From NCBI GenBank assembly GCA_964352425.1, contig CAYGRZ010000004.1, positions 2,647 to 66,646 on the forward strand: 64,000 bases of DNA, in the 5' to 3' direction. A program made the translations under genes and the position numbers. Below are positions 2,682 to 19,176 of this stretch, one piece after another. The notes beneath the pieces were generated by a model. The model was not told the origin of the DNA. It searched no databases and was given only the letters and a program-made list of their open reading frames with translations. This stretch comes from an uncultured Planctomycetia bacterium. Lineage in GTDB: Bacteria; Omnitrophota; Gorgyraeia; 2-01-FULL-45-10. Positions within the stretch are counted from its first letter, which is position 1; every line of letters starts with the position of its first letter.

Positions 2682-3911
2682 TTATGCCTGTATGAACACT
2701 TCCCGTGCCGCCAGGGACGCCGCGCCGAGCACGATCGCGTTCTCCCCCAGCAGGCTCGGGGTCATCTTCACGACGCTCATCGTCTCTTCGAACCCGTACT
2801 TCCTCACCGCTGCCCTGAGCGGGTCCATGAATATATCCCCCGCCTTCTCGACGCCGCCGCCGATGACGACCACATCCGGGTTGAAGAAGTTGACCAGGTA
2901 CGCCAGCTTTACGCCCAGCGTCCTGGCAGCACCGGCGACGAGCTCGATCGCCACCTTGTCGCCCTTCTTCGCCGCGGCGATGACCGTCTCCTTGGTTATC
3001 GCCTTTACATCGCCCTGGGCCAGCCCCAGGATCTCGGTCGATATGCCTTTTTCGATGGCCTTCCGCGTCTCGGAGACGATGCCGAGATCGACGCCCCACG
3101 GCCTCAGGTGCGTGAACTCTTTCGGGTAGTTCTTCTCATCGCGCTGGAGGCCCTCGAACAATATCTGTAATTCGCCCGCGCATCCGCTCGAGCCTATGTA
3201 GACGTCGCCGTGGACGACGAGCCCGCTCCCCACGTCCGAATACATGTAGAGCATGTTCTCGACATCCGCGCCCGGGTTCAAGGTCTTCTCGCCGAATGCG
3301 GCGCAGGAGGCGTCGTTACCGATATAGGCAGGCATATTGAACTTGTCCTCGAGCGTCTTGACGACCTTCAGGAAGCCGACCTTCGTCCTCCCGCGCACCG
3401 GATCGGTGTCGTGCATGGTGCCGGACGAGTAATCGACGATGCCGGAGAGGCCGATACCGATGCACTGTATCTGGCTGCGGTCGATCTTGCTCTTGGCTAT
3501 GACGTCGTCAATGATCGTGATCACGGACGGGACAAGCTCCTCCATATTCACGTGCGGCCTGACCATCCTGGCCAGGCTTATCGCCTTTATCTTCAGGTCG
3601 GCGATGATGGCGATGATATTGTCCGGCCCGATGTCGACGCCGACGATGTAAGCGCTCCTGGCGTTCAGCTCCAGCAGCTCCGCCCTCCTTCCTCCGGTCG
3701 ATACGTCGAGGCCGACTTCGAGGACCATCCTCTTATCGATATAATAGTCGAGGTAGTTGGTGATCGTGACGATATTATAGCCGAGGATCCTCGATATCTC
3801 CGCTTTCGAGATCGGGCTCTTCTTCCTGATCAACTCAAGGATGGCAAGGTTCTTTCGCTCCCTGTCATGCAGGATATGGTACGTGAACATGCCGTCCGAT
3901 TTTAAAGCCAT
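2682..3911 (-). CDS. ROK-family transcriptional regulator (N-terminal HTH plus ROK sugar-kinase-like domain; NagC/Mlc-like).
   Basis: N-terminal winged-helix segment (ILELIRKKSPISKAEISRILGYNIVTITNYLD), a glycine-rich ROK signature (GIGLSGIVD) and an actin-like ATPase fold pattern. Confidence 0.75.
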   Translation of the reverse strand: MALKSDGMFTYHILHDRERKNLAILELIRKKSPISKAEISRILGYNIVTITNYLDYYIDKRMVLEVGLDVSTGGRRAELLELNARSAYIVGVDIGPDNIIAIIADLKIKAISLARMVRPHVNMEELVPSVITIIDDVIAKSKIDRSQIQCIGIGLSGIVDYSSGTMHDTDPVRGRTKVGFLKVVKTLEDKFNMPAYIGNDASCAAFGEKTLNPGADVENMLYMYSDVGSGLVVHGDVYIGSSGCAGELQILFEGLQRDEKNYPKEFTHLRPWGVDLGIVSETRKAIEKGISTEILGLAQGDVKAITKETVIAAAKKGDKVAIELVAGAARTLGVKLAYLVNFFNPDVVVIGGGVEKAGDIFMDPLRAAVRKYGFEETMSVVKMTPSLLGENAIVLGAASLAAREVFIQA

Positions 3912-4716: not shown

Positions 4717-5598
4717 TTAGCCCTTCATGCCGGTGAGCTTGATGCCTTCGACAAAGAACCTCTGGTTAAACAGGAATATGATGATGACCGGGACCATGGT
4801 GACGAGCGACCCCGCCATGAGGAGCCCCCAGTCGGGCTGCGCGTACTGGTACAGCTCCTGGAAGTACGCCAGGCCGACCGGCAGCGTCCTCTTCTCTATC
4901 GAATTCGTCACGAGGAGCGGCCACATGAAGCTGACCCAGTTGCCGAGCGATACAAAGATCGTCAGTGTCGCGAGCGCCGTCTTCGAAAGCGGCAGTATCA
5001 CCTTCGTAAAGATGCCGAACAGCGTGCACCCGTCTATCGTGGCGGCGTCCTCGAGGTCGCGCGGTATCGTCATGAAGAACTGCCGTAAGAGGAACGTCCC
5101 GTAGGCGGAGAATATCGCCGGTATGATCAGCGCCTTGTACGTATCGATCCAGCCGAACGTCCTCATCAGCGCGAATACGGGTATCATCGTCACAGAGCCG
5201 GGTATCATCATCGTCGCGAGATACGCGAAGAATATCTTGTCCCTGCCGGGGAACTTAAGCCGCGCGAACGCGTACGCCGCGAGCGCGCTCGTCGCGACCT
5301 GGCCGAACGTGACGCACGTAACGACGAAGAGGCTGTTCAGGTAGAACCGCGCGAACGGCACGACCTTCCAGACATCTATGTAGTTCTTCCAGTACATGCT
5401 CTTCGGTATCCACTGGATGTCGGCGAGGTTGAATATGAATACGGACGAATAAGACTTCAGCGACGTCGAGAGCATCCACAGGAACGGGATCACCATCGTG
5501 GCGCCGCCGACGATCAGGAAGAGGTAGACCGCCGCCTTCTTCAGGAATCCGGCGAGCGTCTTATCCATCCCTACCTGTATCAGGTCATCCTGCTGCAT
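4717..5598 (-). CDS. Carbohydrate ABC transporter permease (MalG-like).
   Basis: Six TM helices and the EAA-loop motif DLEDAATIDGCTLFGIFTKVILPL. Confidence 0.8.
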   Translation of the reverse strand: MQQDDLIQVGMDKTLAGFLKKAAVYLFLIVGGATMVIPFLWMLSTSLKSYSSVFIFNLADIQWIPKSMYWKNYIDVWKVVPFARFYLNSLFVVTCVTFGQVATSALAAYAFARLKFPGRDKIFFAYLATMMIPGSVTMIPVFALMRTFGWIDTYKALIIPAIFSAYGTFLLRQFFMTIPRDLEDAATIDGCTLFGIFTKVILPLSKTALATLTIFVSLGNWVSFMWPLLVTNSIEKRTLPVGLAYFQELYQYAQPDWGLLMAGSLVTMVPVIIIFLFNQRFFVEGIKLTGMKG

Positions 5599-5611
5599 CC
5601 GCCCCGCCCCC

Positions 5612-6556
5612 TTAATAATGCGAATACTGGACTAACTTTCCGCCGAACCGCCAGTTGAACAGCGTGATGATAAAGACGACAATGAAGACGAACCACGCGA
5701 TCGAGGCCGCATAGCCGACGTGCTGCCAGCTGTACAGGTGGTTGTAGATCAGGTACTCGAGCGTCGTCGTCGAGCGGTCCGGGCCGCCGCCCGTCATGAT
5801 ATACGCCTGCATGAACCCTCCCTGGAAGCCGCCGATCACCGCCATGACGAATACGAAGAACGTGGTCGGGCTTATCATCGGCCAGGTGATGTTCCAGAAC
5901 TTGTGCCACGCGCCTGCCCCGTCCATCTCCGCGGCCTCGTAGAGCTCCCGCGGCACGCCCTGCAGCGCCGCCATAAACAGGATCATGTTATAGCCGCCGA
6001 CCATGATCCACAATCCCATCAGCATCAGCGACGGCTTGGCCCACGCCGTCGAGGTCAGCCACGGCACCTGCGCGAGCGGCAGCGAGAGAAATGTACCGAT
6101 CCTGACGATGATATTGTTCATCAGGCCGAAATCGTAGTTGTATATCCACGCCCAGAGGAGGCATATCGCGACACCGTTCGTGATCGTCGGCAGGAAAAAG
6201 ACGGCCCTGAAGAAGTTGATGAGTCTCACCTTCTGGTTCATCACCAGCGCAAGCGCAAGCGACGCCATGATCTCGACCGGTATGATGAGCATCAGGAAGA
6301 GCGTATTGGAGACGCATTTCCAGAATAGCGGATCGTTGGATACGACACACCCTGCCTCCCTGTGGAAGCCCAGCAGGCTGACGAAATTATGGAAGCCGAC
6401 GAACTTCGGCGCGGAGAGCATGTCCCAGCTCACGAAGCTTAAGACAAGCGAAAGCGCGACCGGCACCAGCGTGAAGACGAGGAACCCCAGAAAATTCGGC
6501 ATCACGAAGAGATACCCGGCAACAGCCTCCCTGTCGGCGCTCCTTATCCGTGCCAA
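5612..6556 (-). CDS. Carbohydrate ABC transporter permease (MalF-like).
   Basis: EAA-loop YEAAEMDGAGAWHKFWNITWPMISP and a polytopic profile. It lies 13 nt upstream of the MalG-like gene. Confidence 0.8.
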   Translation of the reverse strand: MARIRSADREAVAGYLFVMPNFLGFLVFTLVPVALSLVLSFVSWDMLSAPKFVGFHNFVSLLGFHREAGCVVSNDPLFWKCVSNTLFLMLIIPVEIMASLALALVMNQKVRLINFFRAVFFLPTITNGVAICLLWAWIYNYDFGLMNNIIVRIGTFLSLPLAQVPWLTSTAWAKPSLMLMGLWIMVGGYNMILFMAALQGVPRELYEAAEMDGAGAWHKFWNITWPMISPTTFFVFVMAVIGGFQGGFMQAYIMTGGGPDRSTTTLEYLIYNHLYSWQHVGYAASIAWFVFIVVFIITLFNWRFGGKLVQYSHY

Positions 6557-6632
6557 AACTGTCTCCTTTTAGAATGTCTGTAATATCAGGGCAAAAAACA
6601 ATTACGGCCGCTTCATTGTGAATATACCACAA

Positions 6633-8699
6633 TCAGTCGAAAAAGTCCTCTACTTTTAACAATTCTTCTGCCGTTTTTGCTATCGGGTCGTTGTGGAAGC
6701 GCTTCCGTATCGCGCCGTTATTGAGGTAGTTATTGAGCGCTACGAAGCTCATCGCCTGGTCGAGACAGAGGTACTTGACCGCCACCTTGCCGGTCTCGGG
6801 GTCGATCGCGTCGTAAAAACCGTATTCGCCGTAGGCATTGTACTTCTCGAGCATTGTCCGCAGGTTCCGAATGGCCTCTTTCGGGATGAACTCAAGGGCC
6901 AGGAACGTCGCATGGGGCGTGATCACGCCGCTCTTATATCCCTTCATACCGAGCGCCTTCACGCCGTATTCCGAATATCCCTCTCCCGGCACGCACGACG
7001 GCGACATGCCGAAGACCTGATAGCCGAGCTTGTCGAGCGCGTACTGCGCCTGGATCTTCGCGTGCACAAAATCGTTGGCGCCCAGACCCTTTGGAGCCAG
7101 GCCTTTCTCATCGATTATCAGCGTGGGCATCAGCGCCTCGAACATGCTGCCGCCCCAGCTCGGCACGAACTTCATGCCCTCATATTCGTAGTAGCCGCCC
7201 ATCGTCGTGCAGCCCAGATACGTCTTCTCGCGCCGGTCTTTCGGGGCCTGGGTCTGCCAGTACCAGTCTTCGGGGAACGTCCTGGCCAGGGAGAACCAGT
7301 GCTGTGTGGGCACATCGCCCTTGCCGATCGCGATGTAGCTTACGGCCCGGGGCTCGGTGTAGAACGCGCCGTAGCGGTACTCGGCGTAATAATCGATGTT
7401 CGTGTAGAACCCGTGGTACATGTACTCTTCGACCGGGTCATAGAAGAACGAGAAGTTCATGCTGTCGATGATGGTCTGGCACGCGGGCGCAAGTTCATCC
7501 GGGAACGCGTTCTTGGCAACGATGAGGCCGGCAACGAGCCACCCCGAGTCGACGAACGAGATGAAGTTCGACGTCCTCTGGAAGATGGTGATGTCGTAGT
7601 AATTGTACGGGAAGTTGTTGAACTTTTCGAGCTTCTGTATCGAATCGAGCGTGAGCTTAAGCCGTCGCACCGCCTCTTCCTTTGTGATAAATCCGAAGTC
7701 GCAGCCGGAGACGATGCACATCATGTAGACGCCGACATTCGTGATATTCGTGTAATCGCCGACCTTCGTATCCGCCGATATGGCCGCCTTCTCGCTGAAC
7801 TGGATATTGTCGAGCGGCAGGCCGTACTGCCTATCGACGATCTGGTCGAAATACTTCCACGTGTCCCTGGCGATCTCGAGGAGGAATTCACGGTCGCTGT
7901 TCGAGAACGTCTTCTTGACAAATACCGTGGAGGGAAAACCGCGGAGCCGCGCTATGAGGAACCTCGCGAACTCCTCGGGCGGGAGATCTTTGGGCGTCTT
8001 CTGCACCCTGTGGGGTACCGGGTCGCTGATGCTCGGGCCGGGCGCGCCGGTGCTGACGAAGCCGATGTCGTCGAAATAGAGCGTTCCCGACTTGTGGTCG
8101 GCGCGCTTTTTTTCGAACGTGATCACGAACTCCTTGATGTCGTGCCAGTCGAGGATACCGTTCATCACATTGAGCGGGATCGAGACTTTCCGCCAGTCTT
8201 TCGTTACGCCCCGCACGATGTAGTCGGCCCTGATCGTCTCATCCCGGCCCTCGGCGTCCTTCTGCGATTTCTTGAACTCGATCTTGAAGACCGTCGTGAA
8301 GCCTTTCGCCTCGTCGCCCTTCACCCAGAACTCGAAGTGGTCGTACGGTGAGGCGTCCAGGTTGCGCAGCTGCGTCCAGAAGCCGTTGGCGGCGTTCTGC
8401 GGGGAATTGACATTGTATTCGAGCTTCAGCGACGAGCCGACCGTGCCGTGCCGCTCGGTGCCGTCGAGCGATGCGGCGATCCCCTGCGCCCTGTCCTCGG
8501 GGTCTTTCTCCCACGCTCCCGACTCGCCGCCGACGTTGTTGTTGAGCGCGTTCGCGTTGAAATCGGCGACCACGATCGACGCGAGTTTCGGCTCCCCGGA
8601 CGCGCCCTTCGCGGGGTTACCCCGCGACACGTACGCGCCCAGCATCAACACCGCCGCCAGGACCGCGGCAAAGAACGTGAAACGGAATTTTTTCATCAA
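6633..8699 (-). CDS. Secreted protein with an N-terminal CBM-like domain and a C-terminal six-hairpin (alpha/alpha)6 glycoside hydrolase-like domain (GH144/DUF3131-like, putative endo-beta-1,2-glucanase family). The likely ATG is at 8696.
   Basis: Signal peptide (MKKFRFTFFAAVLAAVLMLGAYVS). The CBM block is GTLYFDDIGFV. The C-terminal region is paralogous to 16814..19105 and 25089..26366 (PYNYYDITIFQRTSNFISFVDSGWLVAGLIVAKNAF). The family call comes from my reading of motifs and needs HMM confirmation. Confidence 0.5.
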   Translation of the reverse strand: MMKKFRFTFFAAVLAAVLMLGAYVSRGNPAKGASGEPKLASIVVADFNANALNNNVGGESGAWEKDPEDRAQGIAASLDGTERHGTVGSSLKLEYNVNSPQNAANGFWTQLRNLDASPYDHFEFWVKGDEAKGFTTVFKIEFKKSQKDAEGRDETIRADYIVRGVTKDWRKVSIPLNVMNGILDWHDIKEFVITFEKKRADHKSGTLYFDDIGFVSTGAPGPSISDPVPHRVQKTPKDLPPEEFARFLIARLRGFPSTVFVKKTFSNSDREFLLEIARDTWKYFDQIVDRQYGLPLDNIQFSEKAAISADTKVGDYTNITNVGVYMMCIVSGCDFGFITKEEAVRRLKLTLDSIQKLEKFNNFPYNYYDITIFQRTSNFISFVDSGWLVAGLIVAKNAFPDELAPACQTIIDSMNFSFFYDPVEEYMYHGFYTNIDYYAEYRYGAFYTEPRAVSYIAIGKGDVPTQHWFSLARTFPEDWYWQTQAPKDRREKTYLGCTTMGGYYEYEGMKFVPSWGGSMFEALMPTLIIDEKGLAPKGLGANDFVHAKIQAQYALDKLGYQVFGMSPSCVPGEGYSEYGVKALGMKGYKSGVITPHATFLALEFIPKEAIRNLRTMLEKYNAYGEYGFYDAIDPETGKVAVKYLCLDQAMSFVALNNYLNNGAIRKRFHNDPIAKTAEELLKVEDFFD

Positions 8700-11600
8700 C
8701 GCACCTTTATGCCGGCAAGCGGGCTCTTATTGATATCCCGGCGCACGGCCTTTATCTTCAGGTCACCCCTCGGTTTGTCGAGGTCGGAAGGCAGATGGAG
8801 CTCGTTACCCGCCAGGGTTGCCCCCACCACGCCTTCCATCGCCTGGCGCAGCATCCACCCGGCGGCGCCGGTGTACCCGTGCCAGATCATGCGCCCCGGC
8901 TCGAAATTTGTCAGCATGTCGGCCGACTGCTTGTTCGGCTGCCCGCCGTAGATCTCCTGCTCCGGGCCCTTCACGTGCGGTATCGGCGAGATCTTGAGCC
9001 AGAGACGATAGGCTGTCGCACGGTACTCGTCCGCTTTCGCGCGGTCGCCCCGCCTCTCAAACTCTTCGGCAATAAGGCGGGCAGCCCTGACGAGCCACTG
9101 CACGCCGTGGCAGTACATGCCGTTCTCACGCACGCCTTCGGGATATTTGCTCGAGCGCCCGAGGTACGGCTTGGTATCCTCGCGCAGCGCCGGCCACCCG
9201 AGGAGGATCGCATTGTCCTTCTCGAGGATCTTGAGGGCCGTGTTAAATATGGTCAACCCCCGCTCGAAGTTGATGCCGCTGGTAACCGCCCATGAGGCGG
9301 TGAGCGCGTCTATCTCCCATATCCCGCTGCCCTTCATGCCGATCTCAGTTCCGTCGTCGTGGATCGCGCGCAGGTACCGGTCGCCCCTCCAGGTCTTTTC
9401 GAGCGCCTCCTCGAGGAGCTTCATCCTCTTCACATAATGTTCTTTGCGGGCCGCTCCGTCCTTCCGGCCGATACAATCGGCCATCCCTTTCAGGATGTAA
9501 TGAAGGAAAAACCCGAGCCATATGCTCTCGCCGCGGCCCTCGCTTCCGATCTCGTCGAGGCCGTCGTTCCAGTCTCCCATCTGTATAAGCGGAAGTCCGT
9601 GCTTTCCCATCCGGTCATTCAGGACAAGGTCGATCGAGCGCATGCAGTGCCGGTACACGGTGTCGGAGCGGGTCGTGCGGTGATAGAGGTGCCCCCACCC
9701 CTGCTTGTTCTTTGGGAGCTTCGCGAATGGGAACTCCGAGTACGCGTAAAAGGTCATCTCGTCAAGGATCGACCGGTCGCCCGTCATCCTGATGTACTCG
9801 GCGACGCCCCAGGCAAGCCATACGGGGTTATCGGAGGCATGCGTGCGGCAGGAAAACGCCATCCGGCCGTCAGTGAGGGTGAAGAACCAGTGAAAGACGT
9901 CGCCCTCGAGGAACTGCTGGGACGCGGCCAGTACGATATGCGTGCGCGCCAGCGCCGGGTCGACCCATATCAGGTTTATCGTATCCTGGAGCTGGTCGCG
10001 GAAGCCATAGGCGCCGCTCGTCTGGTAGAATCCGCGGCGCGCCCAAATACGCTCGGCGAGCGCCTGGTACTTAAGCCAGTTCTGGTACCGGTCGAACTCG
10101 GGCGAGCTCGTCTCGACCTTCACGGTCTCCATGAGGCCCAGCCACCATCTTCTGGTATCGGCGAGGCTCTTCTTGGCCGCTTCGATATCCTTATATTTCT
10201 TTATGATGCCGACGGCCTCTTTCATCCGGTCGGTCTGGCCGAGGATGATCGCCACCGAAGCTTGCCCGCGCGCGGGGACCTCCAGCGTCGCCAGAAATGC
10301 AGCCACCTGGCCGTCGTCGGTCAGCTGCGTGGCATCCGGGGAACCCATCTCGACCATGTACGGCCGCGCGACAGTGCGGCCGGTCCCGAAGAAACGCCCT
10401 CGCCGTATCTCGTGGGATTCCGACTGCACCGACATCGATACGAACGCAGGACCTGAACGGAAGATGTTGCGCGGGTTCTCGTAGAAGAGCGCGTCGAGCT
10501 TCTTATCATAGCGGGTGGGCAGCGGCCCCGACTTCTCGGGCATGAACCCGAGCACCATCTGGAAGTACGGCGCGACCCTCATCTTTCTCGGATGGTCGGC
10601 GCTATTCTTTATCGTCAGCAGGTACACCCCCGTCGGCTCGTCCGGCGGAACGAAGACGGCCAGTTCCGTCGAGATCGTCCCGTCCGTCATGCGGAAGACA
10701 GCACTGCCGTCGACCGAGAACGCGCACTCGTGCGCGGCACCCGGCTTATTCAGCGGGTGGTATGTCGGGGAGTACCATTCGTTGGTGTCCCGGTCATAGA
10801 GGTAGATCGCCTCGGACGGTATCTCGCGCGTCACCATATCGGCCCAGTCGGGCGTCAGGCGGTTCTGCTGCGAATTGCCGTTGCACGAGGTGTGTAAGCC
10901 CCGGTTCGTCACCATGACCGAATGTATGGCGTTGGAGACCGCGTGGTCGATCGGCCTGGGCGTGAACGGCGTCTTCACGACGAGCGTGTTGCCGTCCTTG
11001 GTAAAGTCCGAGTACGGCACCGGCGTCCCCAGGGGTATCTCGCCGTGGCCGATCAAGAGAGCCCTCTTCTTCTTTTCCGGCGGCGGCGTCTTCGGAACCT
11101 GAGCCTTGATATACTTTTTGGCGAGCTCAACAGCCTTCTCTTTGTTCTTGGCGTACCCGATTAAAAGCTGCATCGTCACGGATCCCTTCGCTCCCACTGC
11201 CGCGTTCAGCATGAGGCTGCCGATCGGATCGAAGGTCGGGTATTCGTCGGTGTCGCGCGGGCTTAAGAAATCGAGCGTCTCGAGGATGCGGGGCGACCAG
11301 ATGCTCCTGGCGCGGCCGATAAAATCGAAGCGTGACGTCGAGAACCCCTCCGGCGCGACATCGCTTGCGAGAACACCGGTCGACTTGGTGCTCTTCTGCG
11401 ACGAGACGATAGCGTTGACCGAGCTGTCATACCCCATCTCAGGATAGAGGCGCTGGTACTGCGTGTGGAACCTGTCGTGGAGGCCGCCATTCAGGACCCA
11501 CTCGAGATACGGTACGACTTTAAGCGCTCGCGGCTTGTCCGTCAGGTTCTCGATCTTTATCTTCCAGATCTCAGCGGTCGCGTCCTGGTCGGGCAGGCTG

Positions 11601-14600
11601 ATCTCGACGGTCGTCAGGATGCCGTTCGCGGAATTGATTACCTTGAGCGAGCCGTCGCACTGCTCGACGATCGAGGGGGCGAACTTCTCCGCCGGGCAAT
11701 TACCCACGACCGGCCAGAACCGCTTGGGGCTTGAGGCGCTCTGGGCCGTATCGACGACGAATATGATCCTGCCGCACGGATCGACCGTGTCATACGAGCG
11801 CCGCGTGATATCGCATTCCTTGCCGGTGAGCTCGCTGTAACCCGCGCCGTCTTCTCTCACGATCGTTTTGTATTCCCTGTTGCAAAGTTCGTAGCTCGCC
11901 AGGCGGCACTTGCGGTTTCTGAGGCTCAGGGTGCGAAGGATAAATGAGGCCGCGATACAGACGAGGAGAGCCACTATTATTAGGATGGCAACCTGGCCAG
12001 GCGACATCGCCTGCAGGGCCGGGACTATCCCCTTGCCCCTGGCGGCCTCCTGGATGGCCCCTGACGTTGTCCACGCGTAATCCCAATCCTTGCCGCGCGG
12101 CAGGTAAAAAGGTATGAGGAGCGGCGCCCATGTCGCGAAACGCTTGACGCCTTCGGGGATATATCGCTGTGCCGATGCCTTCCCTATAAAGCGGCCTATT
12201 CTTTCGTCGAGCCTGTCCATGCCGAGGAAGCTTAAGTTCACCAGTGTGGCGACTCTTAAGCCCATATGGTCCATCCATATGAGAACGCGGAACCAGTCGA
12301 AGGCCAGCACCCAGACAAAGACCTGGAGGCTCCACTGCCGGAATGCTTCCGGCGTCATCGCGAAATTATTAAAGATGCACGTGAAGGTGTGGATCATGCC
12401 GTCCTGGTTATACCAGGTCGGGTCCGGCATCATGCGCAGGAACGTGAAGATGATGGGCGACATCCAGAGGCCCCACCGGAGGACGTATATCATGTGCTCG
12501 ACCAGCTGCGCGAACCCCGCCTTCGAGAAGAAGAACTTGATAGGGGTCTTGTCTTTCTCAAAATACGCCTGCATGAAGACCTTGTTGATGGCAAAGAGCC
12601 ACGCGGCGATGGACCAGTTGATGACACCCGCCAGAGATTCAAGAAAAAGCAGCTTGGCTCCTCCGGTGCACTGCCCCAAATCCATGTGCCCCCATTTCAT
12701 AACCAAGGGCCACGTGTTATAAAAACCTTCCGAAGAAAAAGTCGCCGCATTGTACTGATTTAATCGAGCCGGTGCTAAAACGGTGCTTACATAAAGGTTG
12801 AACTTTTCCACGATCACCGGGACTTGTAGAGTATCCAGATAGAATGCCATGGCGCTTCCCAAAAATGCGCCCAGGCACGAATCGACGAAGTAGAGCCGCC
12901 ATGTCTGGATCTTGCCCTGGCGCTTCATTGCCCAGACGGCATCTCTTAGGAAGCTTACGCCGCCTGAGGACAGGACTCCTATAATAAGGCCGAAGAGGCA
13001 GCGGTGTCCCATCGGCCACTGAACCATACCCCTGGTCAGGGCGAAGGCAAATCCGAACCCGACGACCACTCCCCTGGCGTAGAGGCTCCCGTCACTGTAG
13101 CTATACTGCGCGCGTTCGAAGAACTTGAGGCTGCCGTCAAAGGTCTCGATTATGGTCTTGAGGAGCGGAAAGATTAGTGCGCCGCAGACGATGCCGATCA
13201 GTATCGGCATGCCGCCCATTATCTTCTGGGCCACGGGCCAGCTCACGATCATGTAGAGAGCGTACATAATCGCCACAAGGATGGCGCTGTAAGCCATACC
13301 CTTCTTCATGCCGGCGTTTACGTGCTTTGAGATCGTCTCAGCCGTAGGCGCGACGCTGTGGCCGCCGTCCAGGAGGCCGCCCGTTATGAGATAGACTTCC
13401 GCCCACAGGCCGCCGTATGAAAGCATCGTCGTTACTATCGCGGTGATTGCCCTCAAGCCGATCGGCAGTTTTGCGACGAAGGCAACCGAACCGAGGTTTG
13501 CGATGACCGGGGCAACGACGGCACCGAGCGAGACAAGAAATATCGAAAGGTGCGCCTTGGGGGCCTTGAGCAGCCTCGACTTCGTCACGAGGCCGATCCC
13601 GTTCATGACGATCTCGTTGAAGACGAACATGACGATGATCCTGCCGATGAATTCTGTTATGTGCGGCCACGCGGCGAGGAGCCCCGCGCTTATGGTGCCG
13701 CCCAACACTTTTAGGAGGCCGACGCTCTCCAGGAGCAGCAGCCAGTTGAAGATGTACGGCGCGGCAAAGATGAACGCGGCGCTTGCCGCTTTCAGGTGCC
13801 TGCCGGACGAGGCGATCGAGCGGGCATTGGCCGCATGATAGACGACGACGGTGATCGTCGCTACCCAGTTACTGAACATGAGAAGCTGCATCCACGAGGA
13901 CGGGGCCGCCAGGACGCCAAGCTTGCTCGAGGCGACCGCTAGTAACCCCGTGAAGAGAGTATTCTGGAAAGTCTCCGCCGGTGTCAGGTGCCTGCCGGTC
14001 AGCCCGCGCTTCAAAAGCTCTGCTATGGCTGCGCCCGCAAGCCCGGCTCCGAGAAAACCGAATGAGGTGGTGGCCTGCAGCGAGGGCGCAAAGCCCTGAG
14101 AATAAACGAAGAGAGCGACAGCTGCAATCAGCATGGCGACAATGCCGTAGAGGACGTCCCGTGCAAGCCTCGTGAGAAGCGTCGCCGGTGATGACGATAA
14201 TTTCGCTATTTCTCTCATGACCTCATTGCGCGTGCATACGACGCGGGGACGGAAGATCATGCCAAGGAGCGCAGCTATGAGCGCCAATAGCGCCGCGAGC
14301 GCCGCGGCCGCGGCTGCCTTTACGAAGATGATATTCTTCTGGAACAGCGACATCTTATAGAAGTTGAGGTCAAAATATATTATACCCTCGAGCTTCTTGG
14401 ACATATCCCGCGGGATGATGAGAATAACGACCTCCTTAAGCTCACCTATCCTGTTCCAGTCAACCGGTTCCCGGATATAGTTCCAGCCTGTGCTGACGGG
14501 AAGCGAGACGACCTGCGCGGAAGGCCTGTCCCCCTTGACCTCCAGCCTTATCGAGATCTGGCCCAGCTGTTCCGGGGTCGAGACCCTGGCAGCGGCCATG

Positions 14601-14938
14601 AAAGCGTCCACAACGTCAGCCTTGAATTTCGGCGGATACTTCTTTATTACGGGGCCGATGAGCCCTCCCGGCAATATCGTGTAGTCGAATTTTATGACAT
14701 CTTTCTTGAGGGATCCGTCAGCCTCGGAGGTCACGTCGCCCATGGCCGGGCCCTCATTGTACATGACCTTCTCTTCGGCTTCCAGGATGCTGAACCCCGT
14801 CGGATCGTTCACGATCGTGGCGCGCTCATCGGCACACTCGGCGATAGACGCCGAGGCAGCCGCCAGAACCGCCAGGGCCGCCATGATGCGAAGACCTCTC
14901 CGGAACATTCTTCCTCCCCACATGTTATCATGTGCCAT
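8696..14938 (-). CDS. 2080-aa fusion protein: signal peptide, periplasmic CBM-like domain, about 800-aa polytopic membrane region and a cytoplasmic GH94-family glycoside phosphorylase-like module (cellobiose phosphorylase / Cgs-NdvB C-terminal type).
   Basis: GH94 hallmarks appear in the last ~1050 aa: tandem N-terminal beta-sandwich domains, then an (alpha/alpha)6 region with GFRDQLQD, QMGDWNDGLDE and VRENGMYCHGVQW. No GT-A (DxD) glycosyltransferase domain is recognisable in the membrane part. It has a strong SD (AAAGAGGAG) and a 1-nt stop/start overlap (TGATG) with the downstream GH144-like gene. Confidence 0.6.
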   Translation of the reverse strand: MAHDNMWGGRMFRRGLRIMAALAVLAAASASIAECADERATIVNDPTGFSILEAEEKVMYNEGPAMGDVTSEADGSLKKDVIKFDYTILPGGLIGPVIKKYPPKFKADVVDAFMAAARVSTPEQLGQISIRLEVKGDRPSAQVVSLPVSTGWNYIREPVDWNRIGELKEVVILIIPRDMSKKLEGIIYFDLNFYKMSLFQKNIIFVKAAAAAALAALLALIAALLGMIFRPRVVCTRNEVMREIAKLSSSPATLLTRLARDVLYGIVAMLIAAVALFVYSQGFAPSLQATTSFGFLGAGLAGAAIAELLKRGLTGRHLTPAETFQNTLFTGLLAVASSKLGVLAAPSSWMQLLMFSNWVATITVVVYHAANARSIASSGRHLKAASAAFIFAAPYIFNWLLLLESVGLLKVLGGTISAGLLAAWPHITEFIGRIIVMFVFNEIVMNGIGLVTKSRLLKAPKAHLSIFLVSLGAVVAPVIANLGSVAFVAKLPIGLRAITAIVTTMLSYGGLWAEVYLITGGLLDGGHSVAPTAETISKHVNAGMKKGMAYSAILVAIMYALYMIVSWPVAQKIMGGMPILIGIVCGALIFPLLKTIIETFDGSLKFFERAQYSYSDGSLYARGVVVGFGFAFALTRGMVQWPMGHRCLFGLIIGVLSSGGVSFLRDAVWAMKRQGKIQTWRLYFVDSCLGAFLGSAMAFYLDTLQVPVIVEKFNLYVSTVLAPARLNQYNAATFSSEGFYNTWPLVMKWGHMDLGQCTGGAKLLFLESLAGVINWSIAAWLFAINKVFMQAYFEKDKTPIKFFFSKAGFAQLVEHMIYVLRWGLWMSPIIFTFLRMMPDPTWYNQDGMIHTFTCIFNNFAMTPEAFRQWSLQVFVWVLAFDWFRVLIWMDHMGLRVATLVNLSFLGMDRLDERIGRFIGKASAQRYIPEGVKRFATWAPLLIPFYLPRGKDWDYAWTTSGAIQEAARGKGIVPALQAMSPGQVAILIIVALLVCIAASFILRTLSLRNRKCRLASYELCNREYKTIVREDGAGYSELTGKECDITRRSYDTVDPCGRIIFVVDTAQSASSPKRFWPVVGNCPAEKFAPSIVEQCDGSLKVINSANGILTTVEISLPDQDATAEIWKIKIENLTDKPRALKVVPYLEWVLNGGLHDRFHTQYQRLYPEMGYDSSVNAIVSSQKSTKSTGVLASDVAPEGFSTSRFDFIGRARSIWSPRILETLDFLSPRDTDEYPTFDPIGSLMLNAAVGAKGSVTMQLLIGYAKNKEKAVELAKKYIKAQVPKTPPPEKKKRALLIGHGEIPLGTPVPYSDFTKDGNTLVVKTPFTPRPIDHAVSNAIHSVMVTNRGLHTSCNGNSQQNRLTPDWADMVTREIPSEAIYLYDRDTNEWYSPTYHPLNKPGAAHECAFSVDGSAVFRMTDGTISTELAVFVPPDEPTGVYLLTIKNSADHPRKMRVAPYFQMVLGFMPEKSGPLPTRYDKKLDALFYENPRNIFRSGPAFVSMSVQSESHEIRRGRFFGTGRTVARPYMVEMGSPDATQLTDDGQVAAFLATLEVPARGQASVAIILGQTDRMKEAVGIIKKYKDIEAAKKSLADTRRWWLGLMETVKVETSSPEFDRYQNWLKYQALAERIWARRGFYQTSGAYGFRDQLQDTINLIWVDPALARTHIVLAASQQFLEGDVFHWFFTLTDGRMAFSCRTHASDNPVWLAWGVAEYIRMTGDRSILDEMTFYAYSEFPFAKLPKNKQGWGHLYHRTTRSDTVYRHCMRSIDLVLNDRMGKHGLPLIQMGDWNDGLDEIGSEGRGESIWLGFFLHYILKGMADCIGRKDGAARKEHYVKRMKLLEEALEKTWRGDRYLRAIHDDGTEIGMKGSGIWEIDALTASWAVTSGINFERGLTIFNTALKILEKDNAILLGWPALREDTKPYLGRSSKYPEGVRENGMYCHGVQWLVRAARLIAEEFERRGDRAKADEYRATAYRLWLKISPIPHVKGPEQEIYGGQPNKQSADMLTNFEPGRMIWHGYTGAAGWMLRQAMEGVVGATLAGNELHLPSDLDKPRGDLKIKAVRRDINKSPLAGIKVR
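8699..11851 (-). other. GH94-like phosphorylase module (residues ~1030-2080).
   Basis: See the parent CDS. DWNDG and ENG-Y-H motifs lie in the (alpha/alpha)6 barrel. Confidence 0.6.
11939..14326 (-). other. Polytopic membrane region (about 15 predicted hydrophobic helices, residues ~205-1000) of the GH94 fusion protein. Its function is unknown.
   Basis: Repeated 18-25-residue hydrophobic stretches with short loops. I did not recognise any enzyme motif. Confidence 0.5.
14354..14830 (-). other. CBM-like beta-sandwich domain (paralog 3) at the periplasmic N-terminus of the GH94 fusion protein.
   Basis: Residues ~37-195 end in KLEGIIYFDLNFY, matching the shared C-terminal block of the other four copies. 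Confidence 0.45.
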
Positions 14939-14987: not shown

Positions 14988-16817
14988 TTATTTAACGACC
15001 ACGACCAGCGTCAGGTCCTTCGCCGCGTCTTTCCTTAAACCCTTATCCGGCGTGCGCACGAGCCCAAAATCATCCAGCTTCGCGGATATCTTGTAGGTTC
15101 CCGGCTCGGACGGCGCCTTCCAGGACTTGGACGGTGATTCCTTGTCGTCGGCGAAACTGCCGTTCTCAGAGGCCCAGTGCAGGACGAGCAGATCCGGCTC
15201 CGTCTCTTCCCTCAGCTCCTTCGGCAGGCGCGAGAGGTCCTCCTTGTCGAGTTGGTACTCATTGAACCGGTCTTTATCGTCCAGCCCCTCAAGGGCGACC
15301 TGTATCTGCGTGCCGGGGCCGACTTCGACCTGCAGCGAACCGTCGCCGGCAGTCGTCGTCTCGAGCTTCTGGCCGCCGGCCGTCGGAACGATCGCGCCGT
15401 TCGTCGGCATGTGAGGATCCCACACTTTGTACGAATCGCTGATGTCGCTGCCGAACTTGGGCGCGGCCTTCTGCTCCCGTATCTGCTTGATATCGTCGAG
15501 GATCGTCTGCGCCGCGAAGGAATACATGCTCGTCGGATCGACCTTCTGCAGCTTCTCGACAGCCGTCTCGTAATTCTTGGCTCTGTAATAGAGGAGTCCT
15601 ATCAGGACCTGGGCGAAATCGCCGGTGTTCTTCCTGTAATAGTTGTCGACGAGGCGCTGCAGCCCCTCTATCGCCTGCACCCTCGGCAGCTGCTCATAAT
15701 AGAGCTTCGCGAGCATCTCGAATGCCTTGTCGAACCAGACGCTGTTCTGATACTTTGTCAGGAAGCCTTCGAGCGCATCCTGGGCCTTCACGTAATCCTT
15801 CTCCAGGTTGTAGCACATCGCTATCTTGTAACTGCAGTAGTCGACGACCTTCGACTCGCCGTAGCTGGCGCAGTAGGCCTCATAATACCGCCTGGCCTCT
15901 TTATGCTTGCCCGCGGCGAAATACTTCTCGGCGATCTCCATCACCTTCGTCGCCATCTCTTCTTTCTCGAAATACGCGGGCGCGGAGGCCGCATACTGCT
16001 CATACAGGTACGTGGCGTTCTTCAGGTCGTGATTGGCAAAGCGGCCGTCGGCCGCCTTCTTTATTTCGTCGAGGACGCCGCGCGCGGTCGCCCTGTCAGC
16101 CTTTGCGGCAAAGATGATCTTCAGCTTCGTGCCGTATTGCACCAGCCCCATACGGTCCAGCTCGCCGCATACCCTGGCAAGCTCCCGCAGGTTCGCCCGG
16201 GGGTCGCTGCTGTACCGGGCTATCGCGGCCGCTATCCCGTCGAGTATCGCGTCCGACTTCTCCGACTGGAACTTCTCTTTGAAGACGAGGAACTTCAGCA
16301 GGTTCACGTCGATGATAAGGCTTTTCGACGCGGTCGCGGCCGCCCGATCCAGGTAGTGAAGCGCTTCGCTGTAATAACGGTCGTTCACCGACATGTAGAG
16401 CCGTCCGGCCTCCAGGTCGTTAGATTTTGAAAGGCAGAGCAGCTGCTCGATCCTGATCCTGCCCAGGCCATAATAGAGGACGTCCTTATTTTCTGCCGAG
16501 GCGTCCTGGGCCATGCTCTTCAGGTCGGAGGCGAGTTTTTCGTAATCGTCGTACGTCCTGCATTCCGAGCATGTCTCCTTGATCACGCCGAGCGCCGACT
16601 CCCCGTCCTTCGCCGCCAGGAGCCTCAACATGATATCGTTAAAGTCCAGCGTGTAGTTCGGCGCGTGGCCTGCGGCCGCATTTTCGGTTGCGGCGCTCCC
16701 GCCGCCGGCCGGCGAGGGGCCCTCGTCCTGCGTTGCTCGGGCCGCGCACCGGGTGTGCGCACACAGCGCAAAAATAATCACGGATACAGCAAGGTCTATC
16801 TTTCTCATCACGGTCAC
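14988..16817 (-). CDS. Secreted TPR-like repeat protein (609 aa) with a C-terminal beta-rich domain.
   Basis: Signal-peptide-like N-terminus. Helical-repeat segments such as AKLYYEQ and IGLLYYRAKNYETAVEKLQK. ATGA-type 4-nt overlap with the upstream gene. Confidence 0.45.
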   Translation of the reverse strand: MTVMRKIDLAVSVIIFALCAHTRCAARATQDEGPSPAGGGSAATENAAAGHAPNYTLDFNDIMLRLLAAKDGESALGVIKETCSECRTYDDYEKLASDLKSMAQDASAENKDVLYYGLGRIRIEQLLCLSKSNDLEAGRLYMSVNDRYYSEALHYLDRAAATASKSLIIDVNLLKFLVFKEKFQSEKSDAILDGIAAAIARYSSDPRANLRELARVCGELDRMGLVQYGTKLKIIFAAKADRATARGVLDEIKKAADGRFANHDLKNATYLYEQYAASAPAYFEKEEMATKVMEIAEKYFAAGKHKEARRYYEAYCASYGESKVVDYCSYKIAMCYNLEKDYVKAQDALEGFLTKYQNSVWFDKAFEMLAKLYYEQLPRVQAIEGLQRLVDNYYRKNTGDFAQVLIGLLYYRAKNYETAVEKLQKVDPTSMYSFAAQTILDDIKQIREQKAAPKFGSDISDSYKVWDPHMPTNGAIVPTAGGQKLETTTAGDGSLQVEVGPGTQIQVALEGLDDKDRFNEYQLDKEDLSRLPKELREETEPDLLVLHWASENGSFADDKESPSKSWKAPSEPGTYKISAKLDDFGLVRTPDKGLRKDAAKDLTLVVVVK

Positions 16818-19105
16818 CTCTTCTTTACGTTGGTAAAGCCCGCTTTCACAAGCGCTTCCTTTACATATGTGTTCTTCATGAAGTTCTTCCAGACGAACCC
16901 CGTCCGGAAGTTCTCTACCGGTATCAGGAACATCCCCACCCCTATGCCGTAGTAGGTCGGGGCGTACCAGTTCAGGTCGAGGTTATATGAGTCCTTGAGG
17001 CCGTACTGCCCCCAGAGGTTCGGATAGGTCACGTACATATATTTCAGCGCGGATATCGATAAGTACGGAGCGAAGACGATGGAGCCCGCGGGCCCCGTCG
17101 GCGAGATGGTGCCGTCGTACTGCGGCTCGCCGTTGCCCGCCGGCGGCGGCCCGAAATGCATGACATAGCCGCCCGGCCTCGCCATCGATGTGATGCCCCA
17201 GCTGTTCGGCCCGTATCCCTTGAACTTGTCGGCGTTATCGATGCAGAACTGCCGGTTGGCCAGCGTCGCGTTGGTGGAGTTCTCGAACCAGTTGACGCCC
17301 TTCCTGTCGGTCATGCCGCGGAAGTCGAACCAGAGGTTGGCATACTGGTAGGAGAAGAGCGCCCCGTGCCAGCTGTAGATGAAGCTCTTTCCGTTCTCGT
17401 AAGCGCCGGACTGCCGTGTCCACGCGTAAAAGGAGTCGGGGGTGACCGGGTGCGTCGGCGAGCCTATCGCCAGCAGCGATATCAGGATGACTTCGTCGGT
17501 GTAGTAGTCCCAGTATGAACCGAGGAAGCCCCGTTCGGGCGACCACCCCATCGAGAAGGTGTTGAGGTACGGCCCCGCGTCCTTCGAGAGGAATTTTTCC
17601 CACTCCACCCTCATGTATATCGCCTCCGCCCTCGTCTGCACGTCGCCGCCGAAATATTCACCGGCCGCCAGCGCCCCGGCGACGAGGATCGCGGTGTCGA
17701 CGGTAGATATCTCCGCCTTGCCGGCGCGGCGCGCCGTGTGCCTGTTCAGGAAATGATAAAAAAATCCGTATCTGCCTTCCGCGAGGCTCTCCTCGGCGCC
17801 CGGCAGGGGCAGGAAGGTGTCCAGCGTCATCAGGACCCTCTGCCTCGCCTCATCCTTATCGATCCATTTCCTCTCGGCGCCTATGCACAGCGCCGCGAGC
17901 CCCAGCCCCGTCGCCGCGATCGACGCGTCGCCGCCCCCGGAGGTATCGGCAAAGAGGCCCGTCTTCGGGTCCTGGTGGTCCCTGAAGAATTCGAACGCCT
18001 TCCTTTCGATGAGGTTAAGGAATTCGTCATCGGTGATCGATTCGACGCCGCACTCTATCAGCGCACCGGTCGGTTTCTCATTACCCCGTATGTCGGCGGC
18101 GAGGGCCCGCACCTGGTAGGTGTGAAGCTGCCTGACCGTATCCGGGGCCCAATCTATCTTGAAAACCCTCTTGTTGACATTGTAATCGGTGCCTATGGTC
18201 CGCCACGTGGCGCCCGTATCGGTGGAATATTCGAACCTGACGCTCTCGAGAAAATGGTTGTCGCGTATGCCGTCCGAGCGTATCTCGAGCTGGTTGGCGC
18301 CCTTGAAGACGGGGCACTGGGCCCCGGGCGCGCCGTTGACCTTAAAGCTGTTCGGGTCGGGCGCCTTTACGGGCTTGACATCCTCGTCTTTGGCGAACAA
18401 TACCTCATCCGGCCTGTAACCGAAGATCATCTCATCGACGTACACGACCCCTTTCTTGTTGCCCGCCTTGTTCTCGAAGACGAAGACCAGCTCCAGCAGT
18501 TTCGACCGGTCGGAGATCTTCGCAAAGGCCTTCAGCGGTATCGTCACCTTCCTCCAGTCCTGCCCCATGATCCCGCCTTTTATATAGGCGTTCATGTATA
18601 CATAAGTCGTGATGTCCCTGCCATACGTGAAGGCGCCGTCGCCGTCCGTATCCTCGTGCAGCTCGACCTTTATATTGCCGCCCTCCTCGAGGCCCCGCAC
18701 CCAGAACGAAAGGTAACTGTACTCCGTCAGGTCCAGCGTCTCGGTCGCGCCGGGCTTGCCCGTGACCTCTTTGCCGAGCTTTATCCAGTAGTAGGTGAAC
18801 TCGCCCGGGTTCTGCACATCGTAGTCGAGCCTTACCGCGTAGCCCGTATTGCCCAGCACGCAGCCGTCATCGTGCTCGACAGCCACAGAGAGCGTGCCCG
18901 GCCTGTTGTCGTCGCCGCCCGACATGCCGCCGAGTTCGGTGAACGCGGTGCCGTTCGAATAATCGGCCAGGAGAAGCGGTTTTACGAATTTTATCGGGAA
19001 GCGCTGTTCCTGCGCCAGAGAGTGCGTATGTAAAAAGAGGGTAAAAAGTGCGGGGACAAAAGCTGACAATGCAAGTTTTCGAAACGCGCCGTTCCAGGCT
19101 CCCAT
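16814..19105 (-). CDS. Secreted CBM-like plus GH144/DUF3131-like (alpha/alpha)6 hydrolase (paralog 2). Start corrected to ATG at 19105.
   Basis: The track ORF extends to 19330. However, the signal peptide (MGAWNGAFRKLALSAFVPALFTLFLHT) begins at the ATG at 19105, which has a GAGGA SD. The CBM block is KGVVYVDEMIF. The C-terminal region (GLFADTSGGGDASIAATGLGLAALCIG...FFYHFLNRHT...VDTAILVAGALAAGEYF) is paralogous to 25089..26366. Confidence 0.55.
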   Translation of the reverse strand: MGAWNGAFRKLALSAFVPALFTLFLHTHSLAQEQRFPIKFVKPLLLADYSNGTAFTELGGMSGGDDNRPGTLSVAVEHDDGCVLGNTGYAVRLDYDVQNPGEFTYYWIKLGKEVTGKPGATETLDLTEYSYLSFWVRGLEEGGNIKVELHEDTDGDGAFTYGRDITTYVYMNAYIKGGIMGQDWRKVTIPLKAFAKISDRSKLLELVFVFENKAGNKKGVVYVDEMIFGYRPDEVLFAKDEDVKPVKAPDPNSFKVNGAPGAQCPVFKGANQLEIRSDGIRDNHFLESVRFEYSTDTGATWRTIGTDYNVNKRVFKIDWAPDTVRQLHTYQVRALAADIRGNEKPTGALIECGVESITDDEFLNLIERKAFEFFRDHQDPKTGLFADTSGGGDASIAATGLGLAALCIGAERKWIDKDEARQRVLMTLDTFLPLPGAEESLAEGRYGFFYHFLNRHTARRAGKAEISTVDTAILVAGALAAGEYFGGDVQTRAEAIYMRVEWEKFLSKDAGPYLNTFSMGWSPERGFLGSYWDYYTDEVILISLLAIGSPTHPVTPDSFYAWTRQSGAYENGKSFIYSWHGALFSYQYANLWFDFRGMTDRKGVNWFENSTNATLANRQFCIDNADKFKGYGPNSWGITSMARPGGYVMHFGPPPAGNGEPQYDGTISPTGPAGSIVFAPYLSISALKYMYVTYPNLWGQYGLKDSYNLDLNWYAPTYYGIGVGMFLIPVENFRTGFVWKNFMKNTYVKEALVKAGFTNVKKR

Positions 19106-19127
19106 GGCAAGGCTTCCTCTACATAAA

Positions 19128-19162: not shown

Positions 19163-19176
19163 TGCGATACCGGTGC

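Follow-up and report, generated by a model that had tools for sequence, protein, structure and literature searches.

A predicted inner-membrane beta-1,2-glucan phosphorylase family joins a Cgs-type GH94 module to a large, conserved membrane domain

GH94 modules are known as soluble phosphorylases and as the C-terminal part of the synthase of cyclic beta-1,2-glucan (Cgs). The soluble 1,2-beta-oligoglucan phosphorylases (SOGPs; Lin1839 and LpSOGP, PDB 5h3z and 5h42) are cytoplasmic enzymes of ∼1100 residues with three subdomains, and their known genes adjoin an ATP-binding cassette (ABC) importer, which serves beta-1,2-oligosaccharides. A further point of reference is provided by the synthase-translocases BcsA-BcsB-BcsZ and OpgH-OpgG, in which a GT2 glycosyltransferase that uses UDP-glucose is joined to a polytopic membrane part, and in which a periplasmic carbohydrate-binding module (CBM) and a co-encoded periplasmic endo-glucanase complete the set (OpgG/OpgD is a beta-1,2-glucanase of family GH186). 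In Cgs itself, the cryo-electron microscopy paper places the start of the phosphorylase half at residue 1536, divides it into subdomains GP1 and GP2-GP3, and locates a Rossmann-like insert, RFL, at residues 1847-2012. The catalytic acid of Cgs is D2528 (mutant D2528A), and its GP domain trims chain length by phosphorolysis rather than building chains (PMC10901819). GH94 reactions are reversible and the role of SOGP in catabolism is phosphorolytic (PMC3960220). The gene described here lies in a 64,000-nucleotide stretch of DNA, called the window throughout (contig CAYGRZ010000004.1 of assembly GCA_964352425.1, from an uncultured bacterium of the Omnitrophota): at 8696-14938 on the minus strand, a single ATG-to-TGA open reading frame (ORF) encodes a protein of 2080 amino acids (aa) that couples a GH94 module to a large membrane domain.

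Judged from its sequence, the 2080-aa protein is a member of a widespread family of predicted inner-membrane beta-1,2-glucan phosphorylases without prior characterisation. What is new is that a GH94 phosphorylase is built into a membrane architecture which is widespread and has gone undescribed; the GH94 membership itself is known by profile, fold and catalytic Asp. The sequence AGGAG stands ∼12 nt 5' of the ATG, and the large ORFs of the window all lie on the same (minus) strand. The original prediction, a fusion of a CBM-like domain, a membrane region and a GH94 phosphorylase, is upheld in its three parts by the ORF, Pfam and AlphaFold2 (AF2) models, with the strand to be corrected to minus. 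The AF2 models were made in two overlapping pieces, aa 1-1020 (predicted local distance difference test, pLDDT, 89.2; predicted template-modelling score, pTM, 0.88) and aa 840-2039 (pLDDT 81.7, with the GH94 part at ∼90). The parts of the protein, with their transmembrane (TM) helices and conserved motifs, are as follows.

8696..14938, minus strand: whole ORF, 2080 aa, with signal peptide, CBM11-like domain, polytopic membrane domain and GH94 module
14834..14938, minus strand: signal peptide or signal anchor at the N-terminus, aa 1-35, with a basic n-region and the hydrophobic stretch IMAALAVLAAASASIA (sequence and AF2)
14351..14806, minus strand: CBM11-like beta-sandwich, aa 45-196, periplasmic by predicted topology
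11900..14332, minus strand: all-helical polytopic membrane domain, aa 203-1013, ∼17-19 TM helices (AF2; no family or fold match)
13130..13159, minus strand: near-invariant KTIIETFDGS, aa 594-603 (family alignments)
12059..12721, minus strand: stretch of strongest conservation in the protein, aa 740-960, rich in Trp, Tyr, Arg, Asp and Asn (conservation profile, invariant columns)
Within 12059..12721, minus strand: (near-)invariant motif RWGLWMSP, aa 821-828
Within 12059..12721, minus strand: (near-)invariant motif PTWYNQDG, aa 840-847
Within 12059..12721, minus strand: (near-)invariant motif DHMGLRVATLVN, aa 890-901
Within 12059..12721, minus strand: (near-)invariant motif TWAPLLIPFY, aa 936-945
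11090..11887, minus strand: GP1, supersandwich-like, aa 1018-1283 (alignment to Cgs 1544-1782, second PF06165 stretch, Foldseek)
10238..11014, minus strand: GP2, GH94 beta-supersandwich, aa 1309-1567 (PF06165 at 1327-1567, Cgs alignment)
8822..10147, minus strand: GP3, GH94 (alpha/alpha)6 catalytic domain, aa 1598-2039 (PF17167, Cgs alignment)
9560..9577, minus strand: GDWNDG motif, aa 1788-1793, near-invariant in the family (Cgs alignment)

The GH94 assignment holds at the profile level. Pfam matches the supersandwich PF06165 at 225 bits against a cut-off of 23, in two stretches of which the better covers aa 1327-1567, and the catalytic domain PF17167 at 212 bits against a cut-off of 27 (E 2e-62, aa 1598-2039). 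The C-terminal part had been put down as GH94 alone and is in fact longer, ∼1060 aa comprising GP1, GP2 and GP3. In a phmmer search of PDB sequences the best match is Cgs (8rf9, E 7e-109), with residues 1018-1256 aligned to Cgs 1544-1782 and residues 1309-2058 to Cgs 2031-2767; the RFL insert falls within the stretch of Cgs that the query skips, and is hence absent. Cellobiose and chitobiose phosphorylases match at E 1e-35 or weaker, and LpSOGP (5h3z) only marginally (E 0.0095). Foldseek comparison of the model of aa 840-2039 gives E 1e-58, a query-based template-modelling score (TMq) of 0.74 and ∼1260 columns for Cgs, E 1e-27, TMq 0.62 and ∼1150 columns for LpSOGP (5h42/5h3z), and TMq 0.52 for disaccharide phosphorylases, with GH94 structures overall at E 1e-34 to 1e-58. 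This comparison with Cgs and the 1,2-beta-oligoglucan phosphorylases, suggested along with the original prediction, places the module far closer to Cgs.

D1792, the second Asp of GDWNDG, aligns with the catalytic acid D2528 of Cgs and is near-invariant in the family. The motif FRDQLQD (1646-1652) is identical in Cgs, and its R1647, like H1944, is near-invariant; these two are candidate phosphate-binding residues, by analogy with cellobiose and chitobiose phosphorylase structures. The C-terminal ∼1060 aa form a complete Cgs-type GH94 module, apparently active by its motif. Kinship with the GP domain of Cgs and the nature of the partner genes suggest specificity for beta-1,2 linkages. The module is likely to sit in the cytoplasm, the compartment that contains phosphate, because the N-terminal domain after the signal peptide would be periplasmic and because a basic stretch, RTLSLRNRKCR, follows the last TM helix. 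The helix at aa 10-28, in the signal peptide region, has low pLDDT in the model of aa 1-1020.

Between the CBM-like domain and the GH94 module, the chain is of a different kind. The AF2 model of aa 1-1020 is wholly helical from residue 203 to its membrane-domain end at 1013, except for two tiny hairpins, and ∼17-19 of the helices are long and hydrophobic enough to be candidate membrane spans, rather than the ∼15 first counted. At E<=10, a profile of the membrane region picks up no relevant Pfam family, its two single-member matches lying at chance level, and nothing among PDB sequences, although that library includes Cgs. Two fold searches return no GT-A, GT-B or GT-C fold and no Cgs or GT2 fold among the matches listed, and similarity of the domain to GT-C, the BcsA-type GT2 channel, the major facilitator superfamily (MFS), MOP flippases and ABC proteins was not found. 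The homology check that had been proposed for this region (GT-C, MFS or flippase) has thereby been made, and neither profile nor fold search identifies a family or fold. A GT-A fold is excluded, as far as the model goes, because the modelled membrane region contains no alpha/beta domain. An internal repeat was also looked for and dropped, since self-comparison of the membrane domain with hhalign gives no significant match. By sequence search and by model, the domain, which is modelled with confidence, has no counterpart among solved structures.

These results set the protein apart from its closest relative of known structure. The two share an inner-membrane location, a C-terminal cytoplasmic GH94 module of GP1, GP2 and GP3, the best sequence and fold scores and the same catalytic Asp, and an SGL-clan (alpha/alpha)6 enzyme belongs to both systems. 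The 2080-aa protein is nevertheless not a Cgs, for it lacks both GT84 and an in-chain cyclase, and its membrane part is a different one. Pfam at E<=1 finds nothing in it besides PF06165 and PF17167, no NCBIfam model matches it, and a GT84 or GT-A domain is found neither by these means nor by PDB sequence search or fold; the absence of a GT-A signature, claimed from the start, is confirmed by Pfam, NCBIfam, PDB profile and AF2. Of the two findings named beforehand as fatal to the original prediction, a GT84-like domain and a failed GH94 profile, neither was made. A hidden GT84 or GT2 domain was ruled out on the same profiles, 24 relatives, PDB sequences, the all-helical model and the fold searches. 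No PF10091 region, which would mark an in-chain GH189 cyclase, is matched by Pfam, and both the RFL subdomain and the N-terminal domain (NTD) of Cgs are lacking. The membrane part is ∼800 aa with ∼17-19 helices, compared with 6 helices in Cgs, with no detectable similarity outside GP; the SGL-clan enzyme is a separate, secreted protein without the cyclase nucleophile; and a periplasmic CBM-like domain stands at the N-terminus. With SOGPs the protein shares a three-subdomain phosphorylase (TMq 0.62 over ∼1150 columns), a gene cluster with an ABC importer and, by analogy, the expectation of phosphorolysis to glucose-1-phosphate; it differs from them in the fusion to a large membrane domain and in a sequence kinship that is marginal (E 0.0095) and far below that to Cgs. 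It probably works, at least in part, like the GP domain of Cgs or like SOGP.

Conservation is highest not in the phosphorylase but in the membrane domain, which is more conserved than most of the protein and contains its peak, at aa 500-960. The invariant Trp, Tyr, Arg, Asp and Asn motifs lie in TM helices or beside them, and positive-inside reasoning would put KTIIETFDGS where a TM helix ends on the cytoplasmic side. Sugar channels typically show an aromatic and polar pattern of conserved residues, and by analogy the signature seen here is of the kind expected for a sugar-binding or sugar-translocating surface. It suggests a glucan conduit, and it is probable that the membrane domain acts as such a conduit together with the phosphorylase, whichever way the chain moves. 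The membrane-proximal helices are of low confidence in the model of aa 840-2039, and no conclusion on the interface between membrane domain and GH94 is drawn from it.

The family is large. A word-indexed search with aa 1-1020 returned four fragments only, whereas 471 clusters (50% identity), many of them with proteins of 1700-2250 aa, came out at E<=1e-3 when 1.84 billion cluster representatives were searched exhaustively with a profile. With each GTDB species represented by one genome, relatives are encoded in at least 546 genomes. Locus comparisons were made for the best 80 of these, which are mostly from Omnitrophota, with others from Elusimicrobiota, Planctomycetota, Verrucomicrobiota/Kiritimatiellota, Sumerlaeota, Auribacterota and Desulfobulbales (the last including the isolate Desulfopila sp. 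IMCC35006). Further matches of a membrane-core profile are labelled Nevskia, Caulobacteraceae, Hyphomicrobiales and Burkholderiales. Among 24 full-length relatives, PF06165 is present in all and PF17167 in 22, and there is no other Pfam domain. The membrane-core profile matches 218 proteins; for the 120 of them that are listed, the precomputed Pfam labels include just one other family, PF02653, carried by a single 376-aa fragment. By these matches the membrane domain and GH94 are seen only together. The databases name the relatives 'cyclic beta-1,2-glucan synthetase' (JGI) or 'glycosyl transferase family 36' (NCBI), and no description of a membrane-fused GH94 was found in the searchable literature. 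The architecture, proposed as new, is thus new to that literature, but it is no one-off, being spread over at least 546 species genomes and 471 clusters and already in the databases under a wrong name. Short 'TM-only' relatives on very long contigs are apparently fragmented gene calls, judged from the one case inspected, locus L081 (CP187161.1, 9001-14462): in this 4.1-Mb genome the gene is in pieces of 890 aa (TM), 210 aa (PF06165) and 363 aa (PF17167), through pseudogene formation or long-read indel errors, which may explain many short 'TM-only' entries. A stand-alone membrane protein was considered for these entries and set aside, the GH94 pieces of L081 lying downstream.

The N-terminal domain is assigned to the CBM11-like beta-sandwiches by structure. 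Foldseek matches its model to CBM11 and the predicted fold is the CBM11 beta-jelly-roll, whereas Pfam CBM_11 gives no match to it at E<=1. Compared with CBM11 (PDB 1v0a), whose Pfam threshold it misses, and with CIA30-type beta-sandwiches, it is distinguished by heading a membrane protein and by occurring in 0-4 tandem copies across the family. Relatives from P0013, P0029, P0092, P0153 and L050 (3-2111) carry 2-4 tandem CBM11-like domains before the membrane domain; those with none are ∼1830 aa long and start within the membrane domain. Such tandem variation would be typical of binding modules. With phmmer and jackhmmer the domain shows no direct similarity to other proteins of the window, and comparison of its family profile with the CBM11-like domain of the neighbours g207, g688, g838 and g269 by hhalign gives a probability of 95.5%, E 1.4e-8 and 19% identity. 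The original prediction that this is the same CBM-like domain as in the secreted neighbours stands as regards the type of domain, not as regards sameness: at 19% identity it is a remote homologue of the same fold class.

Directly downstream, the stop codon of the 2080-aa gene overlaps the start of g688 in the sequence TGATG, and from this overlap the two genes can be called translationally coupled. The product of g688 (6633..8699, minus strand; Pfam, hhalign and PDB search) consists of a signal peptide, a CBM-like domain and an (alpha/alpha)6 SGL-clan domain, with DUF3131 and PF10091 regions in Pfam. In the PDB it comes closest to the cyclisation domain of T. italicus CGS (8wy1, GH189, E 1.2e-47), followed by that of Agrobacterium Cgs (cyclase domain, E 4.7e-40). 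The alignment to 8wy1 skips chain positions 143-306, an insertion that is specific to GH189 according to the SGL-clan paper. The acid/base Glu is kept (E449, equivalent to E1356) together with the Asp of the VDSG motif, and Pro567 lies where the cyclase nucleophile E1442 of TiCGS would be, with Pro, Ser or Ala there in all orthologues. Because the nucleophile is replaced and the GH189 insertion is missing, g688 is probably a secreted enzyme of hydrolase type (Group-2-like), not a cyclase; a 'split Cgs', with g688 as a periplasmic cyclase, had been suggested by the PDB matches and was rejected on the same two features. The enzyme looks intermediate between GH189 and the Group 2 beta-1,2-glucanases, with the addition of an N-terminal CBM11-like domain.

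A second kind of partner takes the same position elsewhere. In Verrucomicrobiota, Planctomycetota and Desulfobulbales loci, the gene directly downstream encodes a secreted protein or lipoprotein of ∼700 aa, here called D730 (L079 13384-15573, L071 14085-16202, L078 14004-16091, L073 13228-15423 and others). D730 matches no Pfam family and no NCBIfam model; its profile matches EeSGL1 (8xuj, a Group 1 endo-beta-1,2-glucanase) at E 3.9e-8, with ∼150 extra C-terminal residues, and both mutationally supported catalytic residues of EeSGL1 are conserved. At L074 (6923-13927) the membrane GH94 protein and D730 are fused in one stop-to-stop ORF of 2335 aa through an extra hydrophobic helix, RKRWLSIVLATAAAAGLFVL, which would keep D730 in the periplasm; the locus is a candidate natural fusion or a sequencing artefact. 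The partners belong to the SGL clan (GH144, GH162, GH189 and Groups 1-4): g838 is GH144-like, g688 nearest GH189 and Group 2, and D730 a remote relative of Group 1. Two unrelated SGL groups, the g688 type and D730, thus share one position, an argument that the membrane GH94 protein is functionally linked to the cleavage of beta-1,2-glucan in the periplasm. No coupling or fusion to a membrane GH94 protein is described in the SGL-clan papers (PMC12102758, PMC10834661).

An automatic tally of the 62 loci whose downstream flank measures 1.5 kb or more places an SGL-type gene adjacent or nearby in 33 and none in 29; two of its three 'fused' tags (L010, L028) are partial matches in upstream ORFs and may be miscounted. 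In the 80 loci, neighbour clustering and Pfam find no other recurrent neighbour, whether glycosyltransferase or ABC exporter, and SGL-clan genes alone recur; a conserved partner of either of those kinds was accordingly dropped. An Isosphaeraceae locus, L071, has at 5877-7811 an ABC exporter half-transporter (ABC_membrane and ABC_tran, 645 aa) directly upstream of the gene for the membrane GH94 protein. It recalls chvA/ndvA next to cgs, and is a single case without conservation elsewhere among the loci.

In the window, the gene stands in a co-oriented string with short or overlapping gaps. The order is g454, g492, a solute-binding protein (SBP), a response regulator, a histidine kinase, the CBM11-like protein g207, g838, a tetratricopeptide repeat (TPR) protein, the gene for the membrane GH94 protein, g688, two ABC permeases, the CBM-like protein g269 and a ROK protein. 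The members other than those already placed are these.

25089..26453, minus strand: g454, the third PF10091 (SGL-clan) protein of the cluster (Pfam)
23539-25017, minus strand: g492, 492 aa, no Pfam match, between g454 and the SBP
22184..23509, minus strand: solute-binding protein of an ABC sugar importer (PF01547, E 8.5e-41)
19177-19800, minus strand: g207, a small CBM11-like ORF
16814..19330, minus strand: g838, a secreted protein in which a CBM-like domain is joined to a GH144-type beta-1,2-glucanase, lying two genes upstream (PF10091 E 1.5e-63; XcSGL 8xul E 3.4e-64)
4717..6556, minus strand: two ABC importer permeases directly downstream of g688 (PF00528, two proteins)
3902-4711, minus strand: g269, no Pfam match, a membrane anchor followed by a C-terminal CBM11-like domain at aa 152-262 (hhalign)
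2682..3911, minus strand: ROK-family protein, sugar kinase or regulator (PF00480)

By this make-up, as predicted from sequence, it is a beta-1,2-glucan utilisation cluster. The small ORF g207 overlaps the listed start of g838 by 154 nt, and some 90 residues at the beginning of g838 resemble read-through of non-coding sequence, which puts its true start probably further downstream. The two-gene arrangement of g207 and g838 recurs in L001, L002, L003, L006 and L048.

As to what the protein does, import-coupled phosphorolysis of beta-1,2-glucan, one of the two mechanisms originally put forward, is tentatively preferred, its chances falling a little short of even. The secreted endo-beta-1,2-glucanases g688, g838 and g454 would cut beta-1,2-glucan in the periplasm; the CBM-like module would capture the chain, and the conserved aromatic and polar core of the membrane domain would pass it across the inner membrane, where GH94 would phosphorolyse it from the non-reducing end to alpha-glucose-1-phosphate. 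Uptake and conservation of bond energy would thus be coupled without ATP, in a manner like group translocation, and the products would enter glycolysis via phosphoglucomutase and ROK glucokinase. This reading is favoured because the local operon is catabolic, because every known physiological role of GH94 is phosphorolytic, and because cytoplasmic phosphate normally lies far above glucose-1-phosphate, which drives phosphorolysis. In the window and the closest relatives, the catabolic context is made up of the SBP and two permeases together with a two-component system, the ROK protein and a GH144 enzyme, all co-oriented. The coupled secreted glucanase of hydrolase type, with the SBP importer, ROK and GH144 neighbours, tilts the balance towards import and away from synthesis.

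Several observations pull against import. Both the pore and the route by which a chain would reach the GH94 active site are predictions, and the membrane-proximal helices of the model of aa 840-2039 are of low confidence. The SBP-dependent ABC importer of the same operon is an uptake route already, which makes a second conduit partly redundant, and its synteny is confined to ∼11 of the 80 loci, closest relatives only. A glucanase gene is nearby in only about half of the loci with enough flank, 33 of 62 by the tally, most loci are without linked catabolic genes, and beta-1,2 specificity is itself read from similarity to the GP domain of Cgs and from the partners. Periplasmic hydrolases also accompany synthases (BcsA/BcsZ, OpgH/OpgG), so that such a partner does not fix the direction of transport. 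The opposite mechanism, a phosphorylase-driven synthase and exporter, takes up much of this evidence: GH94 would elongate beta-1,2-glucan from glucose-1-phosphate, the membrane domain would extrude it, and the periplasmic CBM-like domain and glucanase would guide and trim it. The layout mirrors, by analogy, that of the synthase-translocases BcsA/BcsB/BcsZ and OpgH/OpgG, with a cytoplasmic sugar-polymer enzyme on a polytopic membrane part and a periplasmic binding module and endo-glucanase, a phosphorylase here replacing the nucleotide-sugar glycosyltransferase; in fold, however, the membrane domain showed no resemblance to BcsA-type channels. The biosynthetic Cgs (E 7e-109) is a far nearer relative of the module than is the catabolic SOGP (E 0.0095), g688 is closest to the cyclase domain of Cgs, and an ABC exporter-type gene lies just upstream in the Isosphaeraceae locus, a neighbour that is not conserved. 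GH94 chemistry is reversible (PMC3960220), but the GP domain of Cgs trims rather than builds (PMC10901819). Synthesis would also have to run against the excess of phosphate over glucose-1-phosphate in the cytoplasm, with no evident primer or initiation function, beside a g688 which, like its orthologues, is of hydrolase type (Pro, Ser or Ala for the nucleophile Glu, and no GH189 insertion), and from a gene that shares one co-oriented string with an SBP-dependent importer. On this balance the synthase is a serious alternative, though less likely than import.

Two other readings dispense with a conduit. A membrane-anchored phosphorylase might degrade oligosaccharides brought in by the ABC importer, with the membrane and CBM-like parts serving to anchor, sense or scaffold; the importer is encoded in the same gene string, the pore remains a prediction, and the membrane domain, unlike many transporters, has no sequence-detectable internal repeat. 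This is nonetheless unlikely. A domain of ∼800 aa that is the best conserved part of the protein and has invariant charged and aromatic TM residues goes far beyond the needs of an anchor, its inheritance is strictly tied to that of GH94 in all the phyla concerned, in most cases with no importer, and the extra TM helix of L074, in keeping the partner periplasmic, points to a trans-membrane working unit. Alternatively the membrane domain could be an enzyme of a new fold, a glycosyltransferase or transglycosylase acting on lipid- or protein-linked glucan, with GH94 as length control. The invariant acidic residues E598, D601, D702, D846 and D890, with His and Arg in conserved motifs, would suit such an enzyme, and the GH94 domain of Cgs is likewise accessory to another catalytic centre; but neither fold search lists a GT-A, GT-B or GT-C match, and no conserved lipid-carrier or nucleotide-sugar genes lie nearby, which makes the proposal quite improbable. 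That the gene encodes a conventional Cgs, as its JGI and NCBI names imply, is scarcely credible, given that Pfam at E<=1 finds no GT family here or in the 24 relatives, that the membrane-region profile matches no PDB sequence at E<=10 though Cgs is in the library, that AF2 shows helices only between the CBM-like domain and GH94, and that in-chain cyclase domain and RFL subdomain are missing.

Returning to import-coupled phosphorolysis, an inward conduit, if true, would be the first glycoside phosphorylase mechanically coupled to membrane translocation, and would offer an ATP-free uptake that saves the energy of the glycosidic bond, attractive for energy-limited anaerobes and ultra-small cells. 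An outward conduit, if true, would amount to a polysaccharide synthase independent of nucleotide sugars, with an ∼18-helix translocation domain and periplasmic processing by the SGL clan; a conduit of either kind would make this a categorically new system. Some consequences do not depend on direction. In hundreds of genomes (Omnitrophota, Elusimicrobiota, Planctomycetota, Verrucomicrobiota and some Proteobacteria) a gene labelled 'cyclic glucan synthase' cannot be one, and metabolic reconstructions that deduce cyclic glucan synthesis from it are wrong. An ∼800-aa membrane domain, highly conserved and with no solved counterpart, is confined to the company of a phosphorylase. The biology of beta-1,2-glucan is extended past Proteobacteria and Firmicutes, and the recently defined SGL-clan glucanase groups gain a conserved genomic partner.

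Two very long ORFs of the window lie upstream of the cluster. The first (27147-35117, minus strand) encodes 2656 aa, with an N-terminal signal or anchor and, at aa 1773-2345, domains I, II and IV of phosphoglucomutase/phosphomannomutase. These domains were considered as a link to glucose-1-phosphate and left unused, being reportedly common in Omnitrophota giant proteins, in which glycolytic domains occur (bioRxiv 10.1101/2023.11.21.568195). The second (35357-63910, minus strand) encodes 9517 aa, in which the only Pfam islands are radical SAM, PEP-utilising enzyme, SecA-like P-loop and OEP efflux; it resembles the giant genes of Omnitrophota (bioRxiv 10.1101/2023.11.21.568195) and agrees with the best related loci in pointing to Omnitrophota.

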